64,000 nucleotides of DNA, from IMG/VR virus record IMGVR_UViG_2909739949_000002, positions 18,529 to 82,528 of that record, one strand, 5' to 3'. The DNA comes from a virus (taxonomy: Duplodnaviria > Heunggongvirae > Uroviricota > Caudoviricetes). Positions within the stretch are counted from its first letter, which is position 1, and every line of letters starts with the position of its first letter. The notes beneath the pieces were generated by a model, which was given only the letters and a program-made list of their open reading frames with translations, had not been told where the DNA came from and searched no databases. This document shows positions 13 through 56,046 of this stretch, one piece after another. Both the position numbers and the translations under genes were made by a program.

Positions 13-3000
13 ATGAAGAGAATTGTTATTGGCGCTGGTGTTACAGCTCTATGCGTAGCAATGGACTTCGATCTAGATATATTCTCTACTATCTTGGACG
101 TTAAGAAACCAGGTAAAGTATTGAATAGAGGCTGGAACAAAATTGCGATCGCAGCAGAGCAAGGTTTAGATTTCCAAGACGGATACCAGCCTTATGAACA
201 AGCTGGTCTTGTGCTTAAACACATTAGCGAAGAAGGAGAAGAGACTGATATCGTAGTTAAGGGCGACAAAGCAATGACCCTAACTCACGATGGTAGATTC
301 CTAACAAATGGATCTGGTGTAGGTTTAACACGCAAGAAGTTTGCTTATAGTGCTCGCAAGACATTAAGAGCTACTTTCAACGCTGTCTCTCTGAAGAAAG
401 ATGAAAGCTTAGACTCAGTGAAAGCTGAGATAGAGAAAGAGTTAATGGCAATATTAGCGAGTGATAAAGTCATTACTCATAACTCGAAACACAAGGATAA
501 AGTCATCTTCAAATTCCGTGGTAAGGAGTTAATTAAATACCGTGGACTAAACCAAGACATAATCCTCAGTTCTAAGTATGGTTGTAGCTTCCAAGTGCGC
601 AAGCTAGCTACATCTAAATCTCTATCTATCCAATTAACCGTAGTATACTTTGCTAGCGACTACGAAATTAAGGGTCGCGGTATTGGCATCAAAGCTGTAC
701 TAAAGGATGGTAGAAAAGTTAGCATTTCCAGAAGAGATGGTAGTGATCTCAACTGGGAAGTAGCCCTAAACAGCGAGTGTTTAAAGGGTAACGCTGCTAG
801 GCTTCACCAATATTGCGAGTGGCTACTAGAACAAACTGGTAAGTCTTCTTATCTAGTAACAGATTATCAAACAAAGGAGTTTGAAAGACTGCATACACCT
901 TCATTGACTGAAGAAGGTGTATATGATGTACAAGACTTAGCTGATGAAACCTGTCACTTCTACAAGTGGTGGGAAGGCAGAAGCGAAAGTTATTTCATTC
1001 GCGACTATGTAGACTATGAGAACTATTTCCAAACTTTAGTTCTTGGTCATGCAAAGATGGGTAATAAAGGCGACTACTCTCTAGTAGAGAAAGCTTTATC
1101 TCATGAAGCTAATGCTGTTATTACCCTGATTAATCTCAAGACTGGTAAACCAACTAATAAAATCCAGGAGGCGTTAACAGAAGATGGACTAGTACTAATA
1201 GAAGAGAGAGTAACTGGTGTACTAGCTCCATACACCTTCCAAGTCGAAATGGCTACTACTAGAGAAACAACAGTAGCAGCACAATCACCAACGCTTCAAC
1301 AACTATGCTCCGCTTATGCAGCTTATCCTTCCTTAGGATATGCACTGCTAGAGAATGCACAAGAGACTGAAGATGCAATCATTGGGTGTGCAGCTATGGC
1401 ATTAAATGATCCAACTCTACTGGATCTAAACAATAGTGGAGAGTTGAGTGTAGAAGGTAAAGATTGGGAAGTAGGTAGTAAAGACATATCTGCAAAAGAA
1501 ATAGCAGAAAGTCTCAACCCTAGTATGTTCTCTATGGGATATGCAAATATCTATGGTGAGAGTGATGACCCATTCCTAGCTTTCAGCGAACCAGGAACAG
1601 ACAAGAAGTTCAAACCGTCCGTCTTAGTCAACCAAGTAGGCATCAATGCACCAATGGAAGGCGGTAAGGTAGACTTCAGCGTAAGAGATGTTATTGAAGG
1701 TACTGCGTGGAACTATCAAGTAAACGTGGGTTCTGGATATAATATGTCAAGCGTAATGGCCTGTGTAGCGGCTATGACTCGATATGAGTGGATCAAGGCT
1801 AGTAAGGCTAAAGACAAAGTAGCTTTTGCTAAAGCTATGGAGAAAATGAAGCTTGTAGCTAAGGTTCAAGGTATGTGTTGGCTAACAGGCTATGAAGATA
1901 GCTGGTTGTGTGGTTATAACCTAAAAGGCATGGAGTTGGCTAACAAACTTCACATGTTCCGAAAAGGTTATGTGGCTAAATCAAAAGATAATGAGGAGGT
2001 AAATTTCTCGGCGGTAATCGAACAGATTAAGGGTCAACTAGAGAAGATAGCTAATACTAAATTCTCTGATAATGAAGTAATTATGTTCTTATGGGCGTAT
2101 AGAATAGCTCGTGCTATCTCTGCTCTTGAGAAATATACTTCTGGGCCTGAAGGTGTTGCTAAAGCGTTTAACTTAACTGATGAAGGAGTAGAAGATAAAG
2201 AAGATTTAGATATGGTTGCATTATGCGGCGCGATGCGTAGATGTGACCAAGGAAGATTTGCAAACTTCCTAACACCAGAAGAAGAAGACAATTCTGAAGC
2301 TGGTGGTATTTCAGTTTGGATGTTCTTGAGAGAAAGATGGGTAGATGTACAAAACAAAGTACCTTACTTCCTCCGTAGGAAGATCTACAAATCTATGATT
2401 GTTCAAACAGAGTTTGCTGACTTGACTCGTAATATTAGTGCGGCTGGCGATGAAACTTCACTAAGAAAGAATGAGTCACCAAGAGTTAAACGGAAACCTA
2501 CTGCTAATGCAGGAGAAAGTAGAGTTCTAGTCACTTTACCTGATGCAGATATTGATCTTCCATTTATTCCATTGGAGTACAGTTCAGTAGACGAAGATAA
2601 CTATGGAACTGTAGTTAGCGGCTCGACAGAATTCTTAAAGTTTAAGCAACTAGGAGGTGCTTTTGAAGTAGTAAGAAGATTCTGTCCTATTGGTGAAGAT
2701 GGAAAGAGAGATACAAAGTATCGGAAAGCTGATGCTACCAAAGTACTAAAGTCAGTCTACAAAGTAACCGACTTCAATGGTACAGAATATCAGTTTGATG
2801 AAACATTGCATTTCTGGACTGAAGCCTTAAGCGCTGAGGAAACTCTGAAGATGGCACATAATCGTTATCCTAATGGATGCGTTATATGTTCCATCGATGG
2901 GAAGAATCCAGACAAAGAAACCGATCTGGAAGTGTACTTTAACTTTGGCGCTTTACTAAAGAGTGCTGCATTTATGGGAGGCGGTTCTTCTACTGGTATT

Positions 3001-3447
3001 GGTTTAAGCATTGTCGAATTGCTACATGGAATGGTAGATCGTTACGAGAATAGACCTAAGAACTGGACTACTAAAGCTAGAAATGCCCTAGCTGGTATCC
3101 AAGGTCAAATGAGAGAAATGTTAAAAGCAGGACTCTTACGTAGAATAGGCAGAACTGAACCATTTGCTCAAGGTGGTAAAGTAATGTCTAGCCATTCCTG
3201 TCCGAATGAGATTGTGACTCATGAAGGAGTAGAGTATTCTATTCCAGTAGTGAAGATGAATCCAAATGACGATATCGTCAAGGTAGGAGGTTACATAGAA
3301 GGATCTGTGGTGGCAGTTTATAGAACACCTCAGATTGCTAAACTCTATTGCATTGTAGTAATGGATGAGAACGTATCACTGGGTCACATTGAAGTTAATG
3401 CTCTACTATGGGCTAAATCCAATCGTGGTGATGGTGACGGTAAATAA
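13..3447 (+). CDS. large hypothetical protein (1144 aa), possibly virion-associated; no catalytic motif recognised
   Basis: uninterrupted 3.4-kb ORF; GC about 43%, higher than downstream genes; no P-loop or polymerase motifs seen. Confidence 0.55.
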   Translation: MKRIVIGAGVTALCVAMDFDLDIFSTILDVKKPGKVLNRGWNKIAIAAEQGLDFQDGYQPYEQAGLVLKHISEEGEETDIVVKGDKAMTLTHDGRFLTNGSGVGLTRKKFAYSARKTLRATFNAVSLKKDESLDSVKAEIEKELMAILASDKVITHNSKHKDKVIFKFRGKELIKYRGLNQDIILSSKYGCSFQVRKLATSKSLSIQLTVVYFASDYEIKGRGIGIKAVLKDGRKVSISRRDGSDLNWEVALNSECLKGNAARLHQYCEWLLEQTGKSSYLVTDYQTKEFERLHTPSLTEEGVYDVQDLADETCHFYKWWEGRSESYFIRDYVDYENYFQTLVLGHAKMGNKGDYSLVEKALSHEANAVITLINLKTGKPTNKIQEALTEDGLVLIEERVTGVLAPYTFQVEMATTRETTVAAQSPTLQQLCSAYAAYPSLGYALLENAQETEDAIIGCAAMALNDPTLLDLNNSGELSVEGKDWEVGSKDISAKEIAESLNPSMFSMGYANIYGESDDPFLAFSEPGTDKKFKPSVLVNQVGINAPMEGGKVDFSVRDVIEGTAWNYQVNVGSGYNMSSVMACVAAMTRYEWIKASKAKDKVAFAKAMEKMKLVAKVQGMCWLTGYEDSWLCGYNLKGMELANKLHMFRKGYVAKSKDNEEVNFSAVIEQIKGQLEKIANTKFSDNEVIMFLWAYRIARAISALEKYTSGPEGVAKAFNLTDEGVEDKEDLDMVALCGAMRRCDQGRFANFLTPEEEDNSEAGGISVWMFLRERWVDVQNKVPYFLRRKIYKSMIVQTEFADLTRNISAAGDETSLRKNESPRVKRKPTANAGESRVLVTLPDADIDLPFIPLEYSSVDEDNYGTVVSGSTEFLKFKQLGGAFEVVRRFCPIGEDGKRDTKYRKADATKVLKSVYKVTDFNGTEYQFDETLHFWTEALSAEETLKMAHNRYPNGCVICSIDGKNPDKETDLEVYFNFGALLKSAAFMGGGSSTGIGLSIVELLHGMVDRYENRPKNWTTKARNALAGIQGQMREMLKAGLLRRIGRTEPFAQGGKVMSSHSCPNEIVTHEGVEYSIPVVKMNPNDDIVKVGGYIEGSVVAVYRTPQIAKLYCIVVMDENVSLGHIEVNALLWAKSNRGDGDGK

Positions 3448-3751: not shown

Positions 3752-4357
3752 GTGATGCAGAGAATGACTATATTAACAGAATATAATCTAAGTTTTGAAG
3801 AGAAGCAAAGATTTGATGGCAATATGTTGGGAGATAGTAGCATAGTCTATAAGAGCAAAGAAACAAATGCTCCTAGATATCTACATTATTCTAAGCATAA
3901 AGAATATCTAATCTGGCTTTCTACAAAAGTAAATTACTTTACTAATAGACCTATTTGGAATAAGTTTGTCTTTGATAAAAGAACAAGAAAGACCTACTAT
4001 TCTTATTACATAGGTACTAAAAGTAGTTTATTCTTCAAGAACCAAAGAAGTAGGTGGTATATAGGGAGTAAAAAGATACTGCCTAATGACCTGATAATAG
4101 ATAAACATCTATTACTTCATTGGTACTTAGATGATGGAAGCAAAGCTACAAAAGGAGGAATATACTTTGCTACTGATGGATTTAGCTTTGAAGAAGCTGA
4201 AGCATTGAGTAACAAAATAGCAAAGTATACTAATCTAAATACAAGCCTACATACAAATCAAGGAAACCCTAGAGTGTATATATTCAAGAAAAACACTAAA
4301 GAGTTCTTTGATATCATAGGTAAGTGTCCAATAAGTAGCTTTGAATACAAGTGGTGA
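3752..4357 (+). CDS. LAGLIDADG-family homing endonuclease (free-standing)
   Basis: two LAGLIDADG-like motifs (FDGNMLGDSSIVY and LLHWYLDDGSKATKGG); AT-rich ORF in GC-richer flanks; weak RBS. Confidence 0.7.
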   Translation: MMQRMTILTEYNLSFEEKQRFDGNMLGDSSIVYKSKETNAPRYLHYSKHKEYLIWLSTKVNYFTNRPIWNKFVFDKRTRKTYYSYYIGTKSSLFFKNQRSRWYIGSKKILPNDLIIDKHLLLHWYLDDGSKATKGGIYFATDGFSFEEAEALSNKIAKYTNLNTSLHTNQGNPRVYIFKKNTKEFFDIIGKCPISSFEYKW

Positions 4358-10950: not shown

Positions 10951-11012
10951 AAATAGATACATTCTTCTATTAGAGATAGTATTACCTCATTAGAAGAATG
11001 TATCTATTTAAA
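10951..11012. repeat. 20-bp-stem hairpin AAATAGATACATTCTTCTAA...TTAGAAGAATGTATCTATTT (family B)
   Basis: perfect inverted repeat directly after stop codon. Confidence 0.55.
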
Positions 11013-11054
11013 TAGTATTATTAACAGTTCTATTTAAAGTTATTGGAGGATGAG

Positions 11055-15577: not shown

Positions 15578-16252
15578 ATGCCTAGTTTATTTGGTCTTAA
15601 AGCCATGATTGATCTGAGATCAGAGATATCTCGATCAGTTATGGAACTAAGTTGGAGAGATAACAAAGAGCAGTTCATAGCTCTTACTTGTTATGCGGGG
15701 GATAAAAGATTTGTTGGCAGCAAGAATATATTCAGATCAATGTTCTGCTTCATAGCAGAAAGGGATCTAGAAGTAGCTAAAGCTATCATAAGAAAGATAC
15801 CTTACCTAATTAACTGGGGTGAGGTAGTTAAGTTAATTGATGAGATAGATAATGAAGAGTTAGCTATCTATGCAGCATTGTTCTATGCGACAGTTCTAAG
15901 AGTCAGGAAGGATAGGTTAGCTATTAAATGGGCCCCTAGAGAGGGTAAAAGATTTCAAAGGGCTAGAAAGCTAATTATGGCTCAATTAGGAATTACTAGA
16001 AATAGTGAGTATAGAAAGTTCTTAGCTGAGTTAAATAAGGAATATGATACTTCCCTAGAAACCCTTATGTGTGAAGGGAGATGGGAAGATATTAATTATA
16101 CTCTTATCAGTAAGAGAGCCTTTACCTTATATAAGAATGCGTTTATTAAACATGATGGTAGGAGGGTAAGACTCTATCATCATGAGGATAGTAATAGAAG
16201 GAACTTCTTACAAATGGAGATTCTAATAACTAAGGAGGGATACAAGATATGA
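15578..16252 (+). CDS. hypothetical protein
   Basis: AAGGAG SD. Confidence 0.5.
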   Translation: MPSLFGLKAMIDLRSEISRSVMELSWRDNKEQFIALTCYAGDKRFVGSKNIFRSMFCFIAERDLEVAKAIIRKIPYLINWGEVVKLIDEIDNEELAIYAALFYATVLRVRKDRLAIKWAPREGKRFQRARKLIMAQLGITRNSEYRKFLAELNKEYDTSLETLMCEGRWEDINYTLISKRAFTLYKNAFIKHDGRRVRLYHHEDSNRRNFLQMEILITKEGYKI

Positions 16253-18367: not shown

Positions 18368-18541
18368 ATGAAACTAATTAAGTTTGCCTTCTTTCCTCTA
18401 TTCCTAGTTATGTATCTAATATCTCCTAAGAGAAATATAAAGAAGGAGATAGAAAAAGAGGTATCTAGAAAGATAGAAGAAGGAGACCCACCCCCAGGTA
18501 TTATCTGGGAGTGGGAAATAGAAGATGGGGAAGATGAATAG
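18368..18541 (+). CDS. small membrane protein (57 aa), not in ORF track
   Basis: AAGGAAGGTG SD; TM N-terminus, acidic C-terminus. Confidence 0.4.
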   Translation: MKLIKFAFFPLFLVMYLISPKRNIKKEIEKEVSRKIEEGDPPPGIIWEWEIEDGEDE

Positions 18542-32450: not shown

Positions 32451-33560
32451 TTATTTCTTCTTCTCTCTTCTAGCTTCATAGAGCTGAAGTATCTCATCCC
32501 ACATATCTTCAGGGATAGGTAAAAGAATATGCCCCTCCAACTCTTCAGTTATTTCTACAAACCCCTCCATAGCTGGGAGGGGTTTAAGATCTATTAATTT
32601 CTTAAGGGCATTTACTTTTAGACCAGTTTTAGGTTTAGCTCTAGGTGGTGGAGAAGGTGAAGAAGTAGTTTGTTCATTAGGTAGCTGAGGTTTAACTATA
32701 ACTTCAGTTACCTCAGTAGGTGGCAGAGTTAAGGAAGGGGGTTCTTTAAGAGTATGAAAGTATTCTTTAATATATCTTTCACTAGCTTTAACATAACCTT
32801 CCCCCTTAGCTTGCTCTACTGCCTGAATAATACCAGCAGCAAACTGAGCTGATGTCCACTCTAATCTCTTAGATTCTGCGATCGCATTTCTGAGAGTAGT
32901 TACAGCTATATCTCCCTTAATCAAAAGGTTTTGAACATTTGATGGTTGACCTGCAACCATCATTAAGGTGTCATATTCATTAGAAGTAATACCTACAGCT
33001 TCCATGAATTGTTCTTTAGAATAACCTCGATTAATAAACCGTTGTATTAATGAAGACTTCTCTACTGGGTTAAGATTCTTTTTACCATCACCCCACATGT
33101 CAAGTTCTTCTGTTTCCCAAGAAGTTCCATGACCAATAGTAGTAATGATTGTAGGAATAGTAAGTATATTACAGCCTTCTTGATTGAGCTGCCATACACT
33201 TAGATGTCTTCTATGTCCATCTTTAGGAGCTAAATAATTTCCATCAAGAATTGCCTTGATAGGTTCAGTTACTCCTCCTCTAGCTCTTATCTTAAGTTTC
33301 AGATCTTCTAATTCACCTGATTCAATACCATAGTCTTTCCTAACATTCCAGGAATGTTTCTCTAATAAAGATAAGACTTCTGGGGTATAAGCTAGTGGAG
33401 CCCCTTCAGAACCTTCTACTCTATGTAATTTATTATCTACACCTACATAAAGTTTTGGGCCTATGAAATCCCCATTGATAAGTCTCAAAGAAAATAAATC
33501 AATAGGTACCTGTATTATCTCTCCAGAGATTTTACCAGCAACTCTACCTGCCCTAGACAC
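32451..33560 (-). CDS. ParB-like nuclease domain protein (tentative)
   Basis: minus-strand ORF 369 aa; ILDGNYLAPKDGHRRHLS resembles ParB/Srx DGHHR motif; Pro/Ser-rich linker. Confidence 0.35.
   Translation of the reverse strand: MSRAGRVAGKISGEIIQVPIDLFSLRLINGDFIGPKLYVGVDNKLHRVEGSEGAPLAYTPEVLSLLEKHSWNVRKDYGIESGELEDLKLKIRARGGVTEPIKAILDGNYLAPKDGHRRHLSVWQLNQEGCNILTIPTIITTIGHGTSWETEELDMWGDGKKNLNPVEKSSLIQRFINRGYSKEQFMEAVGITSNEYDTLMMVAGQPSNVQNLLIKGDIAVTTLRNAIAESKRLEWTSAQFAAGIIQAVEQAKGEGYVKASERYIKEYFHTLKEPPSLTLPPTEVTEVIVKPQLPNEQTTSSPSPPPRAKPKTGLKVNALKKLIDLKPLPAMEGFVEITEELEGHILLPIPEDMWDEILQLYEARREKKK
32878..32885. repeat. HIP1 octamer GCGATCGC
   Basis: exact palindrome; 5 copies in window (145, 26119, 32878, 50005, 61091). 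Confidence 0.9.
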
Positions 33561-36406: not shown

Positions 36407-37186
36407 ATGAAAGACGCATTGGGAGATAGAATGAAGGAATTCTATGAGAATGTTTATAGAATTCATTTAACTAGAAGAACTCCTGTAATTCTAAGACTAG
36501 ATGGTAAGTCCTTCCATACTTACTGTAAATCTCTGAAGGATAGGTTTAATAAAGGATTCATGAGATGTATGGATCTAACTGCTATTAGATTAATGGGGGA
36601 GATACAGGGAGCCCAGCTTGCTTTTGTGCAGAGTGATGAGATTAGTATTCTTCTACATGATTATAAGAAACTAACATCTGAAGCATGGATGAAGAATAAT
36701 ATTCAGAAGATGGTTAGTATTAGTGCAGCTATAGCTTCAGTAGAGTTTACTAAGAATAGTCCTATCATTTGGGGATTTAAAGAACTAGATGACGGCTCCT
36801 CTATACCTATAACCAAAGAAGCATACTTTGATAGTAGAGTATTTACTATCCCAGAAGCGGAAGTATGTAATTACTTTATCTGGAGACAGAATGATGCAAC
36901 TAGAAACTCTATTCTTTCTTTAGGTCAAAGTCTCTTTTCACACAAACAGTTACAAGGATTGAACTGTTCTATAATTCAAGATATATGTCATGATAAAGGA
37001 CATAACTGGAATGATTTACCTACTAGTCATAAGAGAGGTAGATGCATAGTTAAAAAGTACCACAACTTTGTATCAGAAGGTGGAGTAGAGACTATAAGAA
37101 GTAAATGGGTAGTAGACGAAGAAATACCTATCTTTACTCAAGATAGAAACTATATAAATAAGTATTTGGCGGTTGATAATAGTTAA
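36407..37186 (+). CDS. Thg1-like protein (tRNA-His guanylyltransferase family; 3'-5' nucleotidyltransferase)
   Basis: GGAG SD; VILRLDGKSFHTY, AFVQSDEISILL, FDSRVFTIP, YFIWRQNDATRNS match Thg1 motifs including the catalytic Asp positions. Confidence 0.8.
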   Translation: MKDALGDRMKEFYENVYRIHLTRRTPVILRLDGKSFHTYCKSLKDRFNKGFMRCMDLTAIRLMGEIQGAQLAFVQSDEISILLHDYKKLTSEAWMKNNIQKMVSISAAIASVEFTKNSPIIWGFKELDDGSSIPITKEAYFDSRVFTIPEAEVCNYFIWRQNDATRNSILSLGQSLFSHKQLQGLNCSIIQDICHDKGHNWNDLPTSHKRGRCIVKKYHNFVSEGGVETIRSKWVVDEEIPIFTQDRNYINKYLAVDNS

Positions 37187-40408: not shown

Positions 40409-41269
40409 TTATATAATATCCACGCCCTTCTTAGCCCAAGCTCTATTCAAGGCAGCTCGTCTATAACGCTTACTAGATAAGGCTAGTTGAGGATAATAGA
40501 TACTAGGTCTCTTAACTACTACAGCAGCAGAATCATATAGAAGAGTAGTAGTGAAGAATTTACTAGAAGTATTAGTCCAGTTCTCCTCATCATTAAATAA
40601 TGCTTCTCTAAGAAAGAATCTATTATCTGGGGAGTATTGAGCTACTCTAATTTTCTGAGCCCTTCTTAGTCTAGAGTTAACTGTTCTAATAGAGACTCCC
40701 AATCTATTAGCTACAGTTAATTGGGAGCCTCCAAAAGAAGACCATTTATCATTAACAAATAAAACTCCACTTCTTAATAATATTATCCCCGTGGATATGT
40801 CAGAGATAGGATTAGTCCCATTATTAAAAAGTGAAGCTATATCTTTATCTGATAAAGGTTTATTCCTATTAGAATTCTTAGTTAAAGACTTGTTAGCTAA
40901 ATATCTAGATTGTCCTTGGAGAGATAATTGAGTAGCCAAAGTAGAGTAATATTTTAAATCTTTAATATCTTCTATTTCTATCTCACATGAAGCGCCCCAA
41001 TTATCTACTTCATTCTCTAGACAAATTCTAACTAGACTTTTGTAGTAAAAAGTATATAACTCACCTCTTCTAATTATCTTAAAGAATAAATTAGATTTGG
41101 TATATCTCCATAAAGTAGTTTTACTTATATCTAATGTCTTTTGAATATATTTAGAGTCTAAAATAGATTTACCTGAACCATTCTTATCCATAGCTCTAAC
41201 TAGGTACCACAATTTAAGAGGTGCCCCAATCTTTTCAATTAAATAGCTATGAATAAAAGTAGAAGACAT
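40409..41269 (-). CDS. HTH DNA-binding protein (sigma-region-4-like / regulator)
   Basis: lone minus-strand gene; C-terminal GGSQLTVANRLGVSIRTVNSRLRRAQKI helix-turn-helix. Confidence 0.45.
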   Translation of the reverse strand: MSSTFIHSYLIEKIGAPLKLWYLVRAMDKNGSGKSILDSKYIQKTLDISKTTLWRYTKSNLFFKIIRRGELYTFYYKSLVRICLENEVDNWGASCEIEIEDIKDLKYYSTLATQLSLQGQSRYLANKSLTKNSNRNKPLSDKDIASLFNNGTNPISDISTGIILLRSGVLFVNDKWSSFGGSQLTVANRLGVSIRTVNSRLRRAQKIRVAQYSPDNRFFLREALFNDEENWTNTSSKFFTTTLLYDSAAVVVKRPSIYYPQLALSSKRYRRAALNRAWAKKGVDII

Positions 41270-44188: not shown

Positions 44189-44237
44189 GTAGATGGGCGG
44201 CTTAACTAACTGCTCATTTTATTTAGGAGATTAATAG

Positions 44238-44474
44238 ATGAGTAATAATGAATCAAATAAGAGTGAGAATAATAAAGATATAGAACAGGAAGAAGATATA
44301 GATTGGATACTGAATCAGCCTATAGATATGAGGATTATTCCTATATCAAATACAGAAGGTAATGATGATTCTCCAAGAAGATCTATTAATCTAGATAGTT
44401 TAGAAAGGAATGTATCTATTGACACTCCCCTGCCTAAAGGCGAGGGGATTCTACATTCACAGACTCGCCGTTAG
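44238..44474 (+). CDS. hypothetical small protein; 3' end runs into IS right end (possibly truncated)
   Basis: AGGAG SD; last ~15 codons lie in GC-rich IS-derived sequence. Confidence 0.4.
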   Translation: MSNNESNKSENNKDIEQEEDIDWILNQPIDMRIIPISNTEGNDDSPRRSINLDSLERNVSIDTPLPKGEGILHSQTRR

Positions 44475-45795
44475 ACAGCAGGCTTGCGCCAACTGCCCAA
44501 GAGGGCAAATCTCCTGTAGCGTAAGTTCCCGTGTGCCCCACGGTACTGAGTCCTAATCTCAAAATGTTGATTGCTGCGTTGATGTCCCTATCTTCGGTAT
44601 ATCCGCAATGAGGGCAGATATGAGTCCTGCTGGACAGAGATTTTTTCACCTTCAAGCCACAGTTAGAGCAATTTTGACTTGTGTTATGGGGCGGAACTGC
44701 AACAGTCACTTTCCCATATTTATGACCAAAATACTCTAACCAACTACGGAAAGTGTACCAACCAGCATCAGATATTGATTTAGCTAAATGTCGATTTCGT
44801 ACCAGCCCTTTGACATTTAAATCTTCATAGGCTACCAAATCGTGAGATTGGATAACGGAGTACGCTAGTCTCTTGCAGTACTCTTTTCGTTGCCTACTTA
44901 CTTTTAAATGTTTACGGGCATATCTATTTCTAGCCTTGTGGTAATTGATTGATTGTCGCTGCTTGGCTTTTTTCCTCTGTTGACTGAATTTCTTAGACTT
45001 CTTGCGGTTGGCTCGGTTTAGCTGTTTTTCCGATTTACGGTAGAACTGGGGTGAAGGTTCAACATTACCTTTGTTGTCAGCGATGAAGTACTTCAATCCC
45101 AGATCAATACCCACTATTTGATTAGTCGGTTGAGTTTCTATCCTGACATCAATATCAATTGCAAATTGGGCATAATACCCATCTGCACGACGCACTAAAC
45201 GCACTCGTTTAATTTGCTTGATGCCGTAGTAATTGAGGTCGTAGGTTCCTTTTAGCTTCAGGGTTCCAATACCTTTTTTATCGGAGAAAGTTATCGCCTT
45301 TCTAGTTTCTGAAAGCTTCCACCCAGTTGATTTGTACTCAACCGAACGGCAGTTTTTCTTAAACTTTGGAAAACCCTTTTTACCCTTGACTTTTTTCTTG
45401 CAGTTATCGTAAAACCGAGCTATTGCGCTCCAAGAACGTTCAGCCGCAGATTGTCTAGCCATTGAGTTGAGTTCATCGGCAAAGGGAAACTCAGCAGCTA
45501 ATACCGCGCAGTATTTATTAAGGTCGTACCTACCAACATCTTTGTTATCCATCCAATAGCGCAAGCATTTGTTTTGGATGAATTGTGATGTGCGGATAGC
45601 CTCATCTATTGCTTGATATTGCTTATCTTTCCCCTTGACTTTAAACTCGTAAACAATCATGGGTATCGACCAATTAACCACATCTTTATGTTACCATAAA
45701 ACACATAAACATACCAAGGAAACAAAGGAATACTGAGGCGTAAACGCCTTAAATCGTTTTCATCCCTTGCCTAAAGGCTAAGGGTTTTCAACGGT
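44425..45795 (-). mobile_element. IS200/IS605-family (IS1341-type, tnpB-only) insertion sequence
   Basis: GC about 45-50% vs about 30% flanks; subterminal hairpins CCCCTGCCTAAAGGCGAGGGG (44432-44453) and CCCTTGCCTAAAGGCTAAGGG (45764-45788); no terminal IRs. Confidence 0.75.
44434..45681 (-). CDS. tnpB: TnpB (OrfB) RNA-guided endonuclease / IS605 accessory protein
   Basis: 415 aa; N-terminal MIVYEFKVK...; RuvC-like + C-terminal zinc finger CSNCG...CPHCG...DRDINAAINI. Confidence 0.85.
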   Translation of the reverse strand: MVNWSIPMIVYEFKVKGKDKQYQAIDEAIRTSQFIQNKCLRYWMDNKDVGRYDLNKYCAVLAAEFPFADELNSMARQSAAERSWSAIARFYDNCKKKVKGKKGFPKFKKNCRSVEYKSTGWKLSETRKAITFSDKKGIGTLKLKGTYDLNYYGIKQIKRVRLVRRADGYYAQFAIDIDVRIETQPTNQIVGIDLGLKYFIADNKGNVEPSPQFYRKSEKQLNRANRKKSKKFSQQRKKAKQRQSINYHKARNRYARKHLKVSRQRKEYCKRLAYSVIQSHDLVAYEDLNVKGLVRNRHLAKSISDAGWYTFRSWLEYFGHKYGKVTVAVPPHNTSQNCSNCGLKVKKSLSSRTHICPHCGYTEDRDINAAINILRLGLSTVGHTGTYATGDLPSWAVGASLLSNGESVNVESPRL

Positions 45796-45852
45796 TTCTT
45801 TTATAAAGGAAGATTTAAATGGTTAGCTATTCTTCTGGTAGGTTTAGTTACA

Positions 45853-46341
45853 GTGGGTACTGTAACTAAGATAAGAGAGACAGTAGAAGAGAGTGCTGAC
45901 TTCTTTATTGGTACTAGTGACATCAATCAGATTAGATCAATAGCTAATAACTGTGTAAGAGAAGGCAACTGTGATAGAAAGATAAATCTTAGGATGTTGT
46001 CTACTTTATGTATCAAAGGAAAAGATAGGAGCTTTTCTATTCAAAAGGAATTCTGGGATTATAGTTTAAAGATAGCTCGTGAGAGATATCTAAGAGGTGA
46101 CTTTGAGGAGGATGAGCTATATACAGGTAGAAGACAGAAAGAGTTTACAGAAAAGGAACTCAAGGAAAAGCGAAATAAGAAGTGGGATGATCTTAAGAAA
46201 GCGTTGAAAGAGAGTAAGAAAACTGAGAACAGATTAAAGGACAATTGGGATTTATGTAGCGCTTTAATAAATTATGTAACAGGCAAAGTTAATAAGCCTA
46301 CAGAGAAAAAGGTTGAAGAAAAGAAAGAGGATGAGAAATGA
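45853..46341 (+). CDS. lysine-rich hypothetical protein; start unclear (GTG), reading frame open back into IS left end
   Basis: no in-frame ATG or SD; possibly 5'-disrupted by the IS insertion. Confidence 0.4.
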   Translation: MGTVTKIRETVEESADFFIGTSDINQIRSIANNCVREGNCDRKINLRMLSTLCIKGKDRSFSIQKEFWDYSLKIARERYLRGDFEEDELYTGRRQKEFTEKELKEKRNKKWDDLKKALKESKKTENRLKDNWDLCSALINYVTGKVNKPTEKKVEEKKEDEK

Positions 46342-47371: not shown

Positions 47372-48070
47372 ATGGATCGTCTAACTGACAATTATGTTCC
47401 AGGCAATGGAGATCTGGGGCATAGTAAAATCCTATATGGATTGCCGCCTATTCTTAAGAGTGACCCAGCATGTGAGATACAAGGGTCTATTGAAAGAGTA
47501 CGTAATTCAATAGAGAAATTATTAAGCACTAGTGAATTACTACAACCAGAATTAAATTACTTATTAGGATATCTAAACAGAAATATATTCTCTCTAGCTT
47601 CTTTCTGTTATATGAAAGGGGATAGTAGTAGACATCTAATGAGTACTGACATTATCTATTTCATGGATAAAGAGATAGAAAAATTAAAGAAAGAGTTAGG
47701 AAGTGTACCTGACTTTATTTATCAGACTCATGTGACATTAGCATATCTAGATGCTATTAGAATTGAGGTTAGGGCGTTAGAAAGAGATTATGTAGCTTGG
47801 TGGTATAGTAGTAAGATTAGTAGATTTCTAATGGAGAGAGAAGATTTAATTAAAGGAGTAAGAATATATGCTGCTATATTAAATAGATTAAGTGCTTATC
47901 TATTTGAAGCAACTAGAAAAGAAGCAGCTATTATGAGAGATAAAGGTATTCCTCTAGTAGAAAAGTATTGGCAGGCTTCTATGGAAGAATGGAATCCACC
48001 AGTAGAAGAAGATAGTAAAGTAGTTAGTATTAGTAAGTTAGTCTCGCCGCCAGAATTATTGATTGCTTAA
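47372..48070 (+). CDS. PduO-type ATP:cob(I)alamin adenosyltransferase-like protein
   Basis: GNGDLGHSKILYGLPPILKSDPACEIQGSIERV aligns to PduO N-terminal [31 protein letters not shown] pattern. Confidence 0.5.
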   Translation: MDRLTDNYVPGNGDLGHSKILYGLPPILKSDPACEIQGSIERVRNSIEKLLSTSELLQPELNYLLGYLNRNIFSLASFCYMKGDSSRHLMSTDIIYFMDKEIEKLKKELGSVPDFIYQTHVTLAYLDAIRIEVRALERDYVAWWYSSKISRFLMEREDLIKGVRIYAAILNRLSAYLFEATRKEAAIMRDKGIPLVEKYWQASMEEWNPPVEEDSKVVSISKLVSPPELLIA

Positions 48071-48156
48071 TTTAATTATTATATTTAATTACCTAATAAC
48101 CTAGTCTGTTTCTAGACTAGGTTTTAATTGTCAACCCTATTATTATTGTTAATTCT

Positions 48157-50370
48157 ATGTCTAAATTAGATCAGTACTTGGATCTATTACAGCCTCAGTA
48201 TCTTAGTAGAGAATTCATTAAGAGTTATGAGAATAAGAAGCCACCCTTTGGTCAATTAGGTGCAGTTATATATATCAGAACTTATAGTAGGTTTATTGAA
48301 GAGTTACGTAGAAGAGAGAGATGGATTGAGACCATCAGTAGAGTAATAGAATATTCTCTAAGCTTAGATACAGTAACACCTTTTGAAGAGAAGCAAGAAG
48401 AGGCTAAAGAACTATTCGAGATGATGTTCTATCTTAAGGGATTACCTTCAGGTAGATCTTTATGGACTGCTGGCTCTGCACAAAGTAGAAGAGATTCTAG
48501 TTCTAATTGGAACTGTACCTTTAGGGTAATGGATTCTCTATCATCTTTTAGTGAAATTTATTATTGGTTATTAATTGGGGCGGGCACTGGATTTTCAGTA
48601 GAAGAGAAATACATTACTAAACTACCTAAGTTCTATAACAATAAGCAAATAGACCATGAGGAATATAATTGTCTATATCCTTATGTGAAGTCAGATGATT
48701 TATCTATTATTAGTGCTGATAAAGAAATAAGACTAGGTAAAGAATATCTCTATCTAAACGACGAAGAGTTTAGAGATAAGTTATCTGGTTTAGGTAGTGT
48801 AGTTCATATAGATATTGGAGATTCTAAAGAAGCGTGGTGTTTAACTCTTAGAACTCTACTAACTATATTTACTATTGAGTCTATTAGAAGGATTACATTT
48901 AACTATGATTTAATTAGACCAGAAGGTACTAGAATTAGAACCTTTGGTGGTAGAAGTAGTGGGCCTCGTGCTTTAAAAGAACTTATAGATAATATATTAA
49001 AGATATTTAACAGGTTTACTGAAGGTAGTGAGTTACTAGAGTTTGTTCTAGATTCAGTAGGTGTATTAGATATATTGAATGCAGTAGGGTTAAATGTTAA
49101 GAGTGGAGGTACTAGAAGAACAGCAGAGATAGGTCTAGGTAGTAGATTAGATAAAGCTTTTATTACTGCTAAAGAGAATCTATGGTCTGATCCTAAGAAA
49201 GAAGAATGGAAAGTTATTAGGACTATGTCTAATAATTCTATTCTTTATTATGAGAATCCAGGAGTAGAAGAGATTAGAAGAAACCTAGACTATACCCAGA
49301 ATGGAGATCCTGGTGTTTGGATTATAGGTAATAGTTTAAAGCTGGCTGAGAGTCCTGTAGCTGGAACAAATCCATGTGCGGAAGCAGCACTAGATGATAA
49401 ACAGTCTTGTAACTTGACAACTCAAGTTGTAGTGAATCATGTGTATCATGATTGGCTAATAGATAGTTATCAGTATGACTACGAAGCTAGCGAGAGAACT
49501 ATAGAGTTAATTACTCGTATTGGTTGTAGACAAACTCTAGCTAATCAATGGCATCCTGAATGGGATAAGACTCAGAAAAGAGATAGATTATTAGGTGTAT
49601 CCATGACTGGGATTATGGATGCGGCTGATATATTAGGTTGGGGTCTTAAGGAGCTTGAGGAATTCTTCAAGTGGGCTAAGAAAGTATCTATTGAAGAAGC
49701 TAATAGATATCACGATTATCTAGGTATTAATAGAAGTACTAGAGTAACATTACTTAAACCAGAAGGAACCTTATCTCTATTACCTACAGTAAGTAGTGGT
49801 ATTCATAGAGCATATGCACCTTATTTCTATAGAAGAGTTAGATTTAGTAAGACTGACCCATTAACTAAAGTACTCCTAGATGTAGGAATGGTACCAGTTC
49901 CAGAGAATGGACAGGGTGATGATCTCTATGCAGAAGAATGTAATACTTGGATATTTACATTCCCTATGAAGACTAATGCTTCTATTAGAGCTATTGATGA
50001 AAGTGCGATCGCACAATTAGAGAGATATAAAGTAGCTCAGAAGTATTATGCTGATCGGGGACATAACATTTCTATTACAGTAACCATTGAACCTAGAGAA
50101 TATGATGAAGTAGCTCAATGGTTATATGATAATTGGGATGATGTAATTGGTATAGCTTTCCTCAGTAGATTTGATCCTAGAGAAGGGGGTCAAGCAGCTT
50201 ATCCTAACATGCCTAATGAACCTTGTACTGAAGAAGAATATTTAGAGCTTAAGAGTAAGACACCAGAGTTAGATGAGTTAGAGTTGTTAGATTTACTTAC
50301 CAAGTATGAGACTGATTATGAAGACTACGAGTTAGATAGTGATTGTCTACAAGGATGTCCAGTTAAATAA
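48157..50370 (+). CDS. nrdJ: ribonucleotide reductase, class II (adenosylcobalamin-dependent, monomeric NrdJ-like)
   Basis: 737 aa; active-site N-P-C-A-E with second Cys 11 residues downstream (SCN), matching the Cys408/Cys419 spacing of class II RNR; LGVSMTGIMD loop; C-terminal CLQGC pair. Confidence 0.7.
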   Translation: MSKLDQYLDLLQPQYLSREFIKSYENKKPPFGQLGAVIYIRTYSRFIEELRRRERWIETISRVIEYSLSLDTVTPFEEKQEEAKELFEMMFYLKGLPSGRSLWTAGSAQSRRDSSSNWNCTFRVMDSLSSFSEIYYWLLIGAGTGFSVEEKYITKLPKFYNNKQIDHEEYNCLYPYVKSDDLSIISADKEIRLGKEYLYLNDEEFRDKLSGLGSVVHIDIGDSKEAWCLTLRTLLTIFTIESIRRITFNYDLIRPEGTRIRTFGGRSSGPRALKELIDNILKIFNRFTEGSELLEFVLDSVGVLDILNAVGLNVKSGGTRRTAEIGLGSRLDKAFITAKENLWSDPKKEEWKVIRTMSNNSILYYENPGVEEIRRNLDYTQNGDPGVWIIGNSLKLAESPVAGTNPCAEAALDDKQSCNLTTQVVVNHVYHDWLIDSYQYDYEASERTIELITRIGCRQTLANQWHPEWDKTQKRDRLLGVSMTGIMDAADILGWGLKELEEFFKWAKKVSIEEANRYHDYLGINRSTRVTLLKPEGTLSLLPTVSSGIHRAYAPYFYRRVRFSKTDPLTKVLLDVGMVPVPENGQGDDLYAEECNTWIFTFPMKTNASIRAIDESAIAQLERYKVAQKYYADRGHNISITVTIEPREYDEVAQWLYDNWDDVIGIAFLSRFDPREGGQAAYPNMPNEPCTEEEYLELKSKTPELDELELLDLLTKYETDYEDYELDSDCLQGCPVK

Positions 50371-55891: not shown

Positions 55892-55898
55892 ATTTAAT

Positions 55899-55970
55899 CC
55901 AGTCTTAGTTCATCGGTAGAATAGGCCTTTTGGGAAGGTCGGGTAACTGGTTCAATTCCAGTAGACTGGA
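55899..55970 (+). tRNA. tRNA-Pro (anticodon UGG)
   Basis: acceptor CCAGTCT/AGACTGG, D-stem GTTC/GAAT, anticodon stem GGCCT/AGGTC loop TTTGGGA, T-arm ACTGG-TTCAATT-CCAGT, discriminator A. Confidence 0.75.
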
Positions 55971-56046
55971 TTTAACTAACTAGTACTAAAGTGATGTAAT
56001 CATGTAGATTACTTCTCTTTAGCTTATAAGGGTTAGTTAGAATAGA

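Follow-up and report, generated by a model that had tools for sequence, protein, structure and literature searches.

A TnpB-only insertion sequence of the IS200/IS605 family that probably interrupts a gene of a phage-like Calothrix replicon

When a transposon-type gene is found in virus-like DNA, it must be asked whether it belongs to a mobile element that has landed in a gene of its carrier or has become one of the carrier's own genes. This question is raised by a GC-rich block with a tnpB gene in the 64,000-nt stretch of DNA analyzed here (IMG/VR virus record IMGVR_UViG_2909739949_000002, positions 18,529 to 82,528; hereafter, the window). A preliminary description of the window, made from the letters alone, had taken the block for a recent IS200/IS605-type insertion into a phage gene or operon. 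Here, positions 44419-45802 were found very probably to be an intact, non-autonomous insertion sequence (IS) of the IS1341 type, a member of the IS200/IS605 family, lying inside a gene of a phage-like replicon. According to the list of open reading frames (ORFs), tnpB is the sole ORF of this 1,384-bp element, and its family is abundant among Nostocales cyanobacteria.

The comparison with cyanobacterial genomes proposed in the preliminary description was made with one genome scanned for each species. Relatives of the encoded TnpB in genome contigs numbered at least 478, nearly all of them from Nostocales, as were almost all of the best 80, and these 80 copies were fetched for analysis of the ends. 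In blastn searches and alignments, the right-end limit of similarity to the other copies was 44419, and the left-end limit was about 45802-45809; for the copies with the most similar left end, blastn stopped at about 45793-45809. The block had earlier been delimited as 44425-45795; the element itself stood, with limits now set by alignment with other copies (Table 1). The right end ...GGAGTGTCAA was shared by 59 of the 80 copies, and the sequence beyond it differed from copy to copy. In most of the remaining 21 copies, an insertion in the hairpin loop shifts the projected end. Termini that are identical in dozens of Nostocales copies at unrelated loci are evidence of mobility. Together with an IS608-like layout and the lack of a detectable tnpA, they uphold the assignment to the IS200/IS605 family and its IS1341 type. 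No second copy and no derivative of the miniature inverted-repeat transposable element (MITE) kind was found within the 64-kb window.

The step in GC content that had drawn attention to the block was also real, at 42.1% for the element versus 32.2% for its flanks. In 200-nt windows, GC content rises from about 0.29 to 0.41-0.50 at 44300-44600, stays at 0.375-0.445 to about 45900, and then falls to about 0.33. The 45-50% previously given for the whole 1.37-kb block, in DNA of about 30%, holds only for the right-end part with the omega RNA (ωRNA, or reRNA). When the region was scanned for promoters and terminators, 0 promoter-like sites and 1 terminator-like hairpin were obtained, which was not above shuffled sequences.

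Table 1. Coordinates in the window of the insertion sequence, its parts, and the gene fragments beside it.
Feature	Position	Strand	Description	Basis
Complete IS, TnpB-only (IS1341-type), IS200/IS605 family	44419..45802	-	1,384 bp, 42.1% GC	blastn and alignment with 80 Nostocales copies
tnpB coding sequence	44434..45660	-	408 aa + stop	Pfam, alignment with ISDra2 TnpB
Left end	45661..45802	-	142 nt	alignment of copies, flank listing, direct repeat, terminator-like scan
Right-end terminus	44419..44448	-	subterminal hairpin 44426-44448, then GTGTCAA (44419-44425)	
Target tetranucleotide TTAT	45803..45806	-	ATAA on + strand; outside IS; 18 nt from hairpin foot	
Predicted ωRNA (reRNA) scaffold	44419..44543	-	minimum structured core of ~125 nt; 5' limit may reach ~44580	
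Predicted guide flank	44399..44418	-	5'-TAGATACATTCCTTTCTAAA-3', directly 3' of right end	
5' fragment of interrupted gene	44238..44418	+	60 codons + 1 nt; AGGAG 8 nt before ATG	
3' fragment of interrupted gene	45803..46341	+	2 nt + 178 codons + stop; begins just before predicted membrane helix WLAILLVGLVTVGTV	

The ends themselves largely follow the rules of IS608, in which cleavage on the left occurs outside the IS, 19 nt 5' of the hairpin, and cleavage on the right occurs within it, at TCAA (PMC3201880). As in IS608 and ISDra2, the element has a subterminal imperfect hairpin at both ends, no terminal inverted repeats, and no target duplication. No inverted pair joined the two ends in a repeat search, and the flank past the right end reads TAGA... 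and does not repeat the left flank. The left-end hairpin (45764-45784) reads CCCTTGCC-TAAA-GGCtAAGGG on the plus strand and is accompanied by a second hairpin at 45734-45751. The two ends are related by a 25-nt direct repeat of 84% identity (44426-44450 and 45763-45787), each arm of which forms an imperfect hairpin around GCCTAAAGGC, an exact 10-mer found at only these two sites in 64 kb. The hairpins at both ends thus share a direct orientation, and the earlier observation of subterminal hairpins without terminal inverted repeats, as in the IS1341 group, was confirmed. Across copies, compensatory changes occurred at 7 of the 9 pairs of the right-end hairpin, and the left-end hairpin also keeps its pairing. 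In many chromosomal copies, the loop of the right-end hairpin carries about 30 nt of extra sequence, possibly itself hairpin-forming, that the window copy lacks (L015, L019, L020, L053, L055, L056, L060-L062, L067, and L074, at about 4217-4260 in most; L084, at about 3361-3408).

The last 4 nt of the IS are TCAA, the cleavage-site tetranucleotide with which IS608 also finishes; the distance from the foot of the right hairpin to this end is 7 nt, versus 10 nt in IS608. On the left, TTAT directly abuts the end in all 10 alignable copies, with unrelated sequence upstream of it, at a distance from the hairpin foot that is 1 nt shorter than in IS608 (18 versus 19 nt). As in IS608, insertion is on the 3' side of an AT-rich tetranucleotide that is not itself part of the element; it is TTAT for the window copy and TTAC for IS608. 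From this anatomy, TTAT is predicted to be both the left cleavage and target site of TnpA and the target-adjacent motif (TAM) of TnpB. The predicted TAM would then differ from the TTGAT or TTAC of the ISDra2 and IS608 systems. A short conserved motif stands 5' of each hairpin foot, again as in IS608: TTGAAAA on the left and AGAAT on the right. They occupy the positions of the IS608 guide tetranucleotides and, to judge by this placement, may be the guide sequences for TnpA.

The protein encoded on the minus strand is a TnpB with a RuvC-like domain and a zinc finger, as had been described. It matched OrfB_IS605 (PF01385) at 6.8e-18 and the Cas12f1-like_TNB zinc ribbon (PF07282) at 2e-24 in Pfam, and ISDra2 TnpB (8exa/8h1j) in the PDB at E=1e-37. 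Its RuvC triad, D186/E279/D359, is intact and aligns with D191/E278/D361 of ISDra2, so that the homologous proteins have the same catalytic residues, and the zinc finger is formed by two CxxC pairs (C331/C334 and C349/C352). Compared with four chromosomal copies, the ratio of nonsynonymous to synonymous substitution rates (dN/dS) was 0.04-0.06 at a dS of 0.6-0.9, which indicates strong purifying selection on TnpB along these lineages. The sequence is that of a catalytically competent-looking nuclease. Two other kinds of element were considered and rejected. A nuclease-dead repressor of the TldR type was ruled out by the intact triad and the presence of both transposon ends. An IStron was ruled out by a left end of just 142 nt and by the lack of any Rfam group I intron match (E<=1, 44200-46000, both strands).

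Neither a search for the Y1 HUH motif nor tblastn detected a tnpA in the element, elsewhere in the 64-kb window, or in the 3 kb on each side of the 80 copies; the tblastn query was the TnpA of a related phage-borne copy (Nodularia phage kac65v151). The family is therefore regarded as TnpB-only and in need of mobilization in trans, whereas IS608 and ISDra2 have a tnpA of their own. The phage from which the query was taken, vB_NspS-kac65v151 (MK605242.1), carries an annotated 134-aa IS200/IS605 transposase with the HUH motif DHVHLF (L086, 1674-2078). The transposase gene adjoins the tnpB of that phage in divergent orientation, and the IS there ends in the same right-end terminus, GGGAGTGTCAA, as the window element. 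A TnpA of this type may be what mobilizes the TnpB-only copies.

The preliminary description had also expected an ωRNA overlapping the 3' end of tnpB, and the comparison of copies bears this out. An alignment of the final 240 nt from 60 copies was folded as a set with RNAalifold. The consensus fold consisted of six helices with 34 pairs, spanning 44543-44426 in the window. Of the alignment cells, 97.6% were paired and 17 pairs had changed on both sides, values that were reached by 0 of 500 column shuffles, and pairing fell to 31-48% when the partners were slid by 1-3 columns. Compensatory switches included CCGUG/CACGG to CGGUA/UACCG, the long-range CUACA/UGUAG to CUUGG/CCAAG, and GGC/GCC to GGU/ACC or GGG/CCC. 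In the window copy, all 34 consensus pairs are intact, and its sequence alone folds likewise, with a minimum free energy of -61.9 kcal/mol (z = -4.2). No Rfam family matched the region. Thus, a 3' ωRNA scaffold is supported by covariation. The right-end hairpin includes the stop codon of tnpB, which is only 15 nt away from the end of the element. The ωRNA scaffold thus doubles as coding sequence over almost its full length, all but the last 15 nt of the core lying inside the 3' end of the ORF. In IS608 and ISDra2, too, the ωRNA is encoded by the 3' end of tnpB together with the right end; the reach of tnpB to within 15 nt of the element end sets the window element apart from both IS608 and ISDra2. 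One copy, L011, has a 45-nt insertion within the ωRNA region that is lacking in the window copy.

For TnpB, the guide is taken from the flank 3' of the right end, with the transcript continuing for about 16 nt, which is the established mechanism (PMC13565253). By the same anatomy, the first 16 nt of the flank, TAGATACATTCCTTTC, are most likely the guide here; this 16-mer is unique within the window. A separate perfect 16-nt inverted repeat, TAGATACATTCTTCTA, has its arms at 10954-10969 (+) and 10991-11006 (-), just upstream of an ORF starting at 11043; it resembles the predicted guide at 13 of 16 positions, probably by coincidence.

The gene at the insertion site was reconstructed by exact removal of 44419-45802. 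As noted previously, the upstream ORF (44238-44474) reads into the IS, from which its last 18 codons and stop codon come, the 5' piece having no stop of its own. For the downstream ORF (45853-46341), the earlier statements that it has no in-frame ATG and that its frame stays open back into the IS, to 45775, were correct; as to the Shine-Dalgarno sequence it was said to lack, no clear ribosome-binding site is present. The stop of this 3' fragment overlaps the ATG of the next ORF (46338). With the IS removed, the two fragments join in frame to 720 nt encoding 239 aa, with no stop between 44238 and 46341. Assigning TTAT to the IS puts a stop into the fused frame within 7 codons; only the boundary given by the IS608 rule therefore yields the reconstruction. 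The reconstructed protein has an acidic N-terminal 60 aa, a hydrophobic helix (WLAILLVGLVTVGTV), and a 150-aa C-terminal part, from which a single-pass membrane protein is predicted, an ORFan of unassigned function. Neither fragment matched Pfam or PHROGs. Of the gene or operon named in the preliminary description, we infer a single gene split by the IS rather than several genes or an operon. The predicted insertion-free junction would be AATGTATCTA/ATAAAGGAAGA, the slash marking the point of joining.

The origin of the copy and its carrier were traced by protein look-up and composition. An exact protein look-up located the window on contig JACJQF010000002.1 (359,493 bp) of assembly GCA_014696495.1, Calothrix sp. 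FACHB-1219. The nearest TnpB, 94% identical in amino acids, is named for the same strain, and its copy was fetched on a chromosomal-type contig of assembly GCA_014696565.1 with 40.5% GC and with genes usual for cyanobacteria, namely YggT and UPRTase, as neighbors. A Calothrix (Nostocales) host for the carrier is thereby supported, in keeping with the cyanobacterial host that had been proposed. A protein search gave at least 5 further paralogues named for Calothrix sp. FACHB-1219, and an exact look-up for an identical TnpB found the protein on the source contig alone. Chromosomal copies from Calothrix brevissima NIES-22, Calothrix anomala FACHB-343, Chlorogloeopsis fritschii PCC 6912, and FACHB-1219 contigs, with TnpB 88-95% identical in amino acids and DNA 79-87% identical, have the same termini, ωRNA structure, and TTAT target. 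The difference is that the window copy lies in phage-like DNA of 32% GC rather than in a chromosome of 40% GC. Over the whole window, GC content is 34%, versus about 40.5% in the Calothrix chromosomal contig. For tnpB, it is 0.424, and 0.428 at third codon positions (GC3), values within or above those of 55 chromosomal relatives (GC3 of 0.389 ± 0.042) and well removed from the GC3 of 0.237 in the flanking ORFs. This host-like composition, without drift toward the carrier, fits an evolutionarily recent arrival.

The gene content around the element is virus-like, with a class II ribonucleotide reductase (RNR), a Thg1-type protein, two TROVE/Ro-like proteins, a LAGLIDADG endonuclease, a ParB-like protein, and a tRNA-Pro. 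The carrier is a previously undescribed replicon and may be a very large phage, a prophage, or an episome. The element ties an otherwise unplaceable phage-like replicon of 32% GC to a Nostocales (Calothrix) host.

Several results weigh against an intact IS within a phage gene or limit how far that reading can be pressed. The nearest known copy is 87.4% identical in nucleotides (12.6% diverged, dS of about 0.6), and no near-identical donor was found. The insertion, called recent in the preliminary description, keeps its undrifted composition in favor of that word, which needs qualifying by this distance and cannot be given a date because no sequenced donor copy is known. The window contains no capsid or terminase gene, and the word phage rests on gene content. 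Against 50,697 GenBank phage records, blastn in "distant" mode gave no match for either 4-kb flank, and a close relative of the carrier genome was also absent from IMG/VR, where the sole relative of the nearby RNR is 28% identical. With no hallmark structural gene in the window and no nucleotide similarity to GenBank phages, "phage-like" is the safe description. For the 239-aa protein, no homologue was found among 5.8 billion clusters or 1.84 billion representatives, just the annotated 162-aa fragment itself, and the exact empty-site 22-mer was absent from IMG/VR and JGI metagenome contigs. The comparison with related phages lacking the insertion, as suggested earlier, thus yielded none in GenBank, IMG/VR, or metagenomes, and the intact gene was only reconstructed by exact excision. 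In the absence of an insertion-free relative from the collections searched, the disruption is deduced rather than observed. Finally, an open fusion was also obtained at 72 of 224 arbitrary nearby junctions (about 32%), so that frame continuity is a weak test when taken alone.

This last figure bears most directly on the idea that the IS separates two small independent genes, or entered a gene already in decay, with the in-frame continuity being coincidental. Such an arrangement would also suit the lack of a homologue for either fragment and the PGAP annotation of two proteins of 78 and 162 aa. We nevertheless judge it quite improbable, as the IS-free sequence is stop-free from end to end, the 5' piece is preceded by a good AGGAG site yet depends on the IS for a stop codon, and the 3' piece has neither an ATG nor a clear ribosome-binding site and starts just before a membrane helix. 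The dependence of the fusion on the IS608-rule boundary, with TTAT left outside, argues in the same direction. Still less probable, and in our view very unlikely, is that tnpB has been domesticated as a non-mobile phage gene, for example, an RNA-guided nuclease or repressor directed against hosts or rival phages. The recurrence of TnpB genes in isolated cyanophages (A-1(L), Nodularia phages, Microcystis MaMV, and Pseudanabaena PA-SR01), the strong induction of the A-1(L) copy during infection (bioRxiv 10.64898/2026.02.14.705889), and the strongly purifying selection on TnpB would all be compatible with such a role. However, both ends of the window element are intact, its layout is identical to that of chromosomal copies at unrelated loci, and its composition is host-like rather than phage-like. 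In addition, tnpB is antisense to every neighbor, all of which otherwise run on the plus strand, and interrupts an ORF, and the intact triad speaks against a TldR-type repressor. This alternative overlaps with that of an intact IS in a phage-like gene, since a still-mobile IS can also benefit its carrier. A false join caused by a multicopy chromosomal IS during assembly is hardly credible. The strain does have at least 5 other paralogues, and IS copies often break or misjoin short-read assemblies, but the window copy is the sole member of its protein cluster at 90% identity, and no paralogue comes nearer than 87% in nucleotides, so that it could not have been mistaken for another copy during assembly. 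Moreover, the DNA on either side of the IS is phage-like and low in GC, and the two flanks, on the same strand, together form one reading frame, and the identical protein is recorded under two NCBI accession numbers, labeled MULTISPECIES for unclassified Calothrix.

For the intact IS inside a gene of a phage-like replicon, the following history can be proposed from its anatomy. A Y1 (HUH) TnpA supplied in trans in a Calothrix-like host cell would have moved the element as single-stranded DNA; any excised circle would bear the right-end/left-end junction ...GGAGTGTCAA/AAAAGAAACCG. Integration would have taken place 3' of a minus-strand TTAT in a low-GC, phage-like replicon, and one 239-aa gene would thereby have been broken in two, its 5' stub now running out within the IS and its 3' piece lacking a start codon. 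The ωRNA would then read about 16 nt into the flank and take TAGATACATTCCTTTC as its guide, so that the TnpB-ωRNA complex could cleave the allele lacking the IS (TTAT followed by TAGATACATTCC...). With an IS-bearing genome copy as the repair template, the element would be restored and thereby retained and spread among co-replicating phage-like genomes. The action of TnpA in trans, expression, nuclease activity, and homing are all presumed in this scheme.

In its strongest form, the element would be active as an RNA-guided gene drive in an undescribed large Calothrix phage or episome, with the ωRNA aimed at the uninterrupted allele of an ORFan membrane protein. We regard this as rather unlikely. 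If it were true, IS-free siblings co-infecting the same filament would be cut and then converted or eliminated, and the IS-bearing phage lineage would gain an advantage like that of a homing endonuclease. The allele pair, i.e., the IS-bearing site and the predicted empty site, makes it possible to test, in a phage background, whether TnpB drives retention. The compact TnpB of 408 aa, together with its defined ωRNA and candidate TAM, is also an addition to the nucleases that can be tested. In general, the locus is a well-resolved textbook case, with exact ends, a predicted TAM and guide, a covariation-backed ωRNA, and a reconstructed target gene.

TnpB-encoding ISs in cyanophages and in Nostocales genomes have already been documented, and existing knowledge of them is unchanged by this copy. 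Among isolated cyanophages, they occur in Anabaena A-1(L), Nodularia vB_NspS-kac65/kac68 and vB_NpeS-2AV2, Microcystis MaMV, and Pseudanabaena PA-SR01, and the DNA of these phage-borne elements is 66-69% identical to the window IS over most of tnpB. The right-end terminus GGGAGTGTCAA is shared by the copies of Microcystis phage MaMV-DH01 and Nodularia phage kac65v151; in the Nodularia phage, a tnpA lies adjacent, whereas the window element has none. Cyanophage A-1(L) acquired a host IS, and its copy is identical to five host copies and is induced in infection (bioRxiv 10.64898/2026.02.14.705889). In contrast, the window copy is 12.6% diverged from the nearest one known. The A-1(L) tnpB also contains a 347-aa reverse-strand ORF (bioRxiv 10.64898/2026.02.14.705889), whereas no ORF longer than 48 aa was found on the reverse strand of tnpB here. 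The carrier genome of the window differs from isolated cyanophages in having no nucleotide similarity to any GenBank phage. The window IS is thus set apart by its TnpB-only makeup, an undescribed genome, and a split gene of unassigned function.

Some further features of the carrier were recorded. A cobalamin adenosyltransferase gene (PF01923) stands directly upstream of the B12-dependent class II RNR gene (phrog_367, 1e-150), the pair occupying 47372-50370 (+). The RNR is a single 737-aa ORF; the nearest phage RNRs, 42% identical in amino acids, are found in Nodularia phages and are annotated as intein-containing. TROVE/Ro60-like proteins (phrog_850) are encoded at 15578-16252 (+) and 56432-58039 (+), and the single tRNA gene of the window, a tRNA-Pro (UGG) at 55898-55971, precedes the larger of the two by about 460 nt; a Rfam search at gathering thresholds gave no Y-RNA-like family. 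A Thg1-type tRNA-His guanylyltransferase (phrog_4717, 1.2e-80) is encoded at 36407-37186 (+), with its closest phage relatives, at about 49% amino acid identity, in Bacillus phages. Besides tnpB, the only minus-strand ORFs of at least 200 aa are those at 32451-33560 and 40409-41269, one of which is ParB-like (phrog_1033, 1e-12) and the other of which has weak, below-cutoff matches to helix-turn-helix/excisionase-like proteins; they could be regulatory or partition genes or more inserted cassettes. A match to a LAGLIDADG homing endonuclease (phrog_11023, 1.2e-20) at 3752-4357 (+) lies just downstream of a 1,144-aa ORF (13-3447) and is locally GC-richer. This ORF could be a second selfish element in the window and mark an intron or a free-standing homing endonuclease gene.

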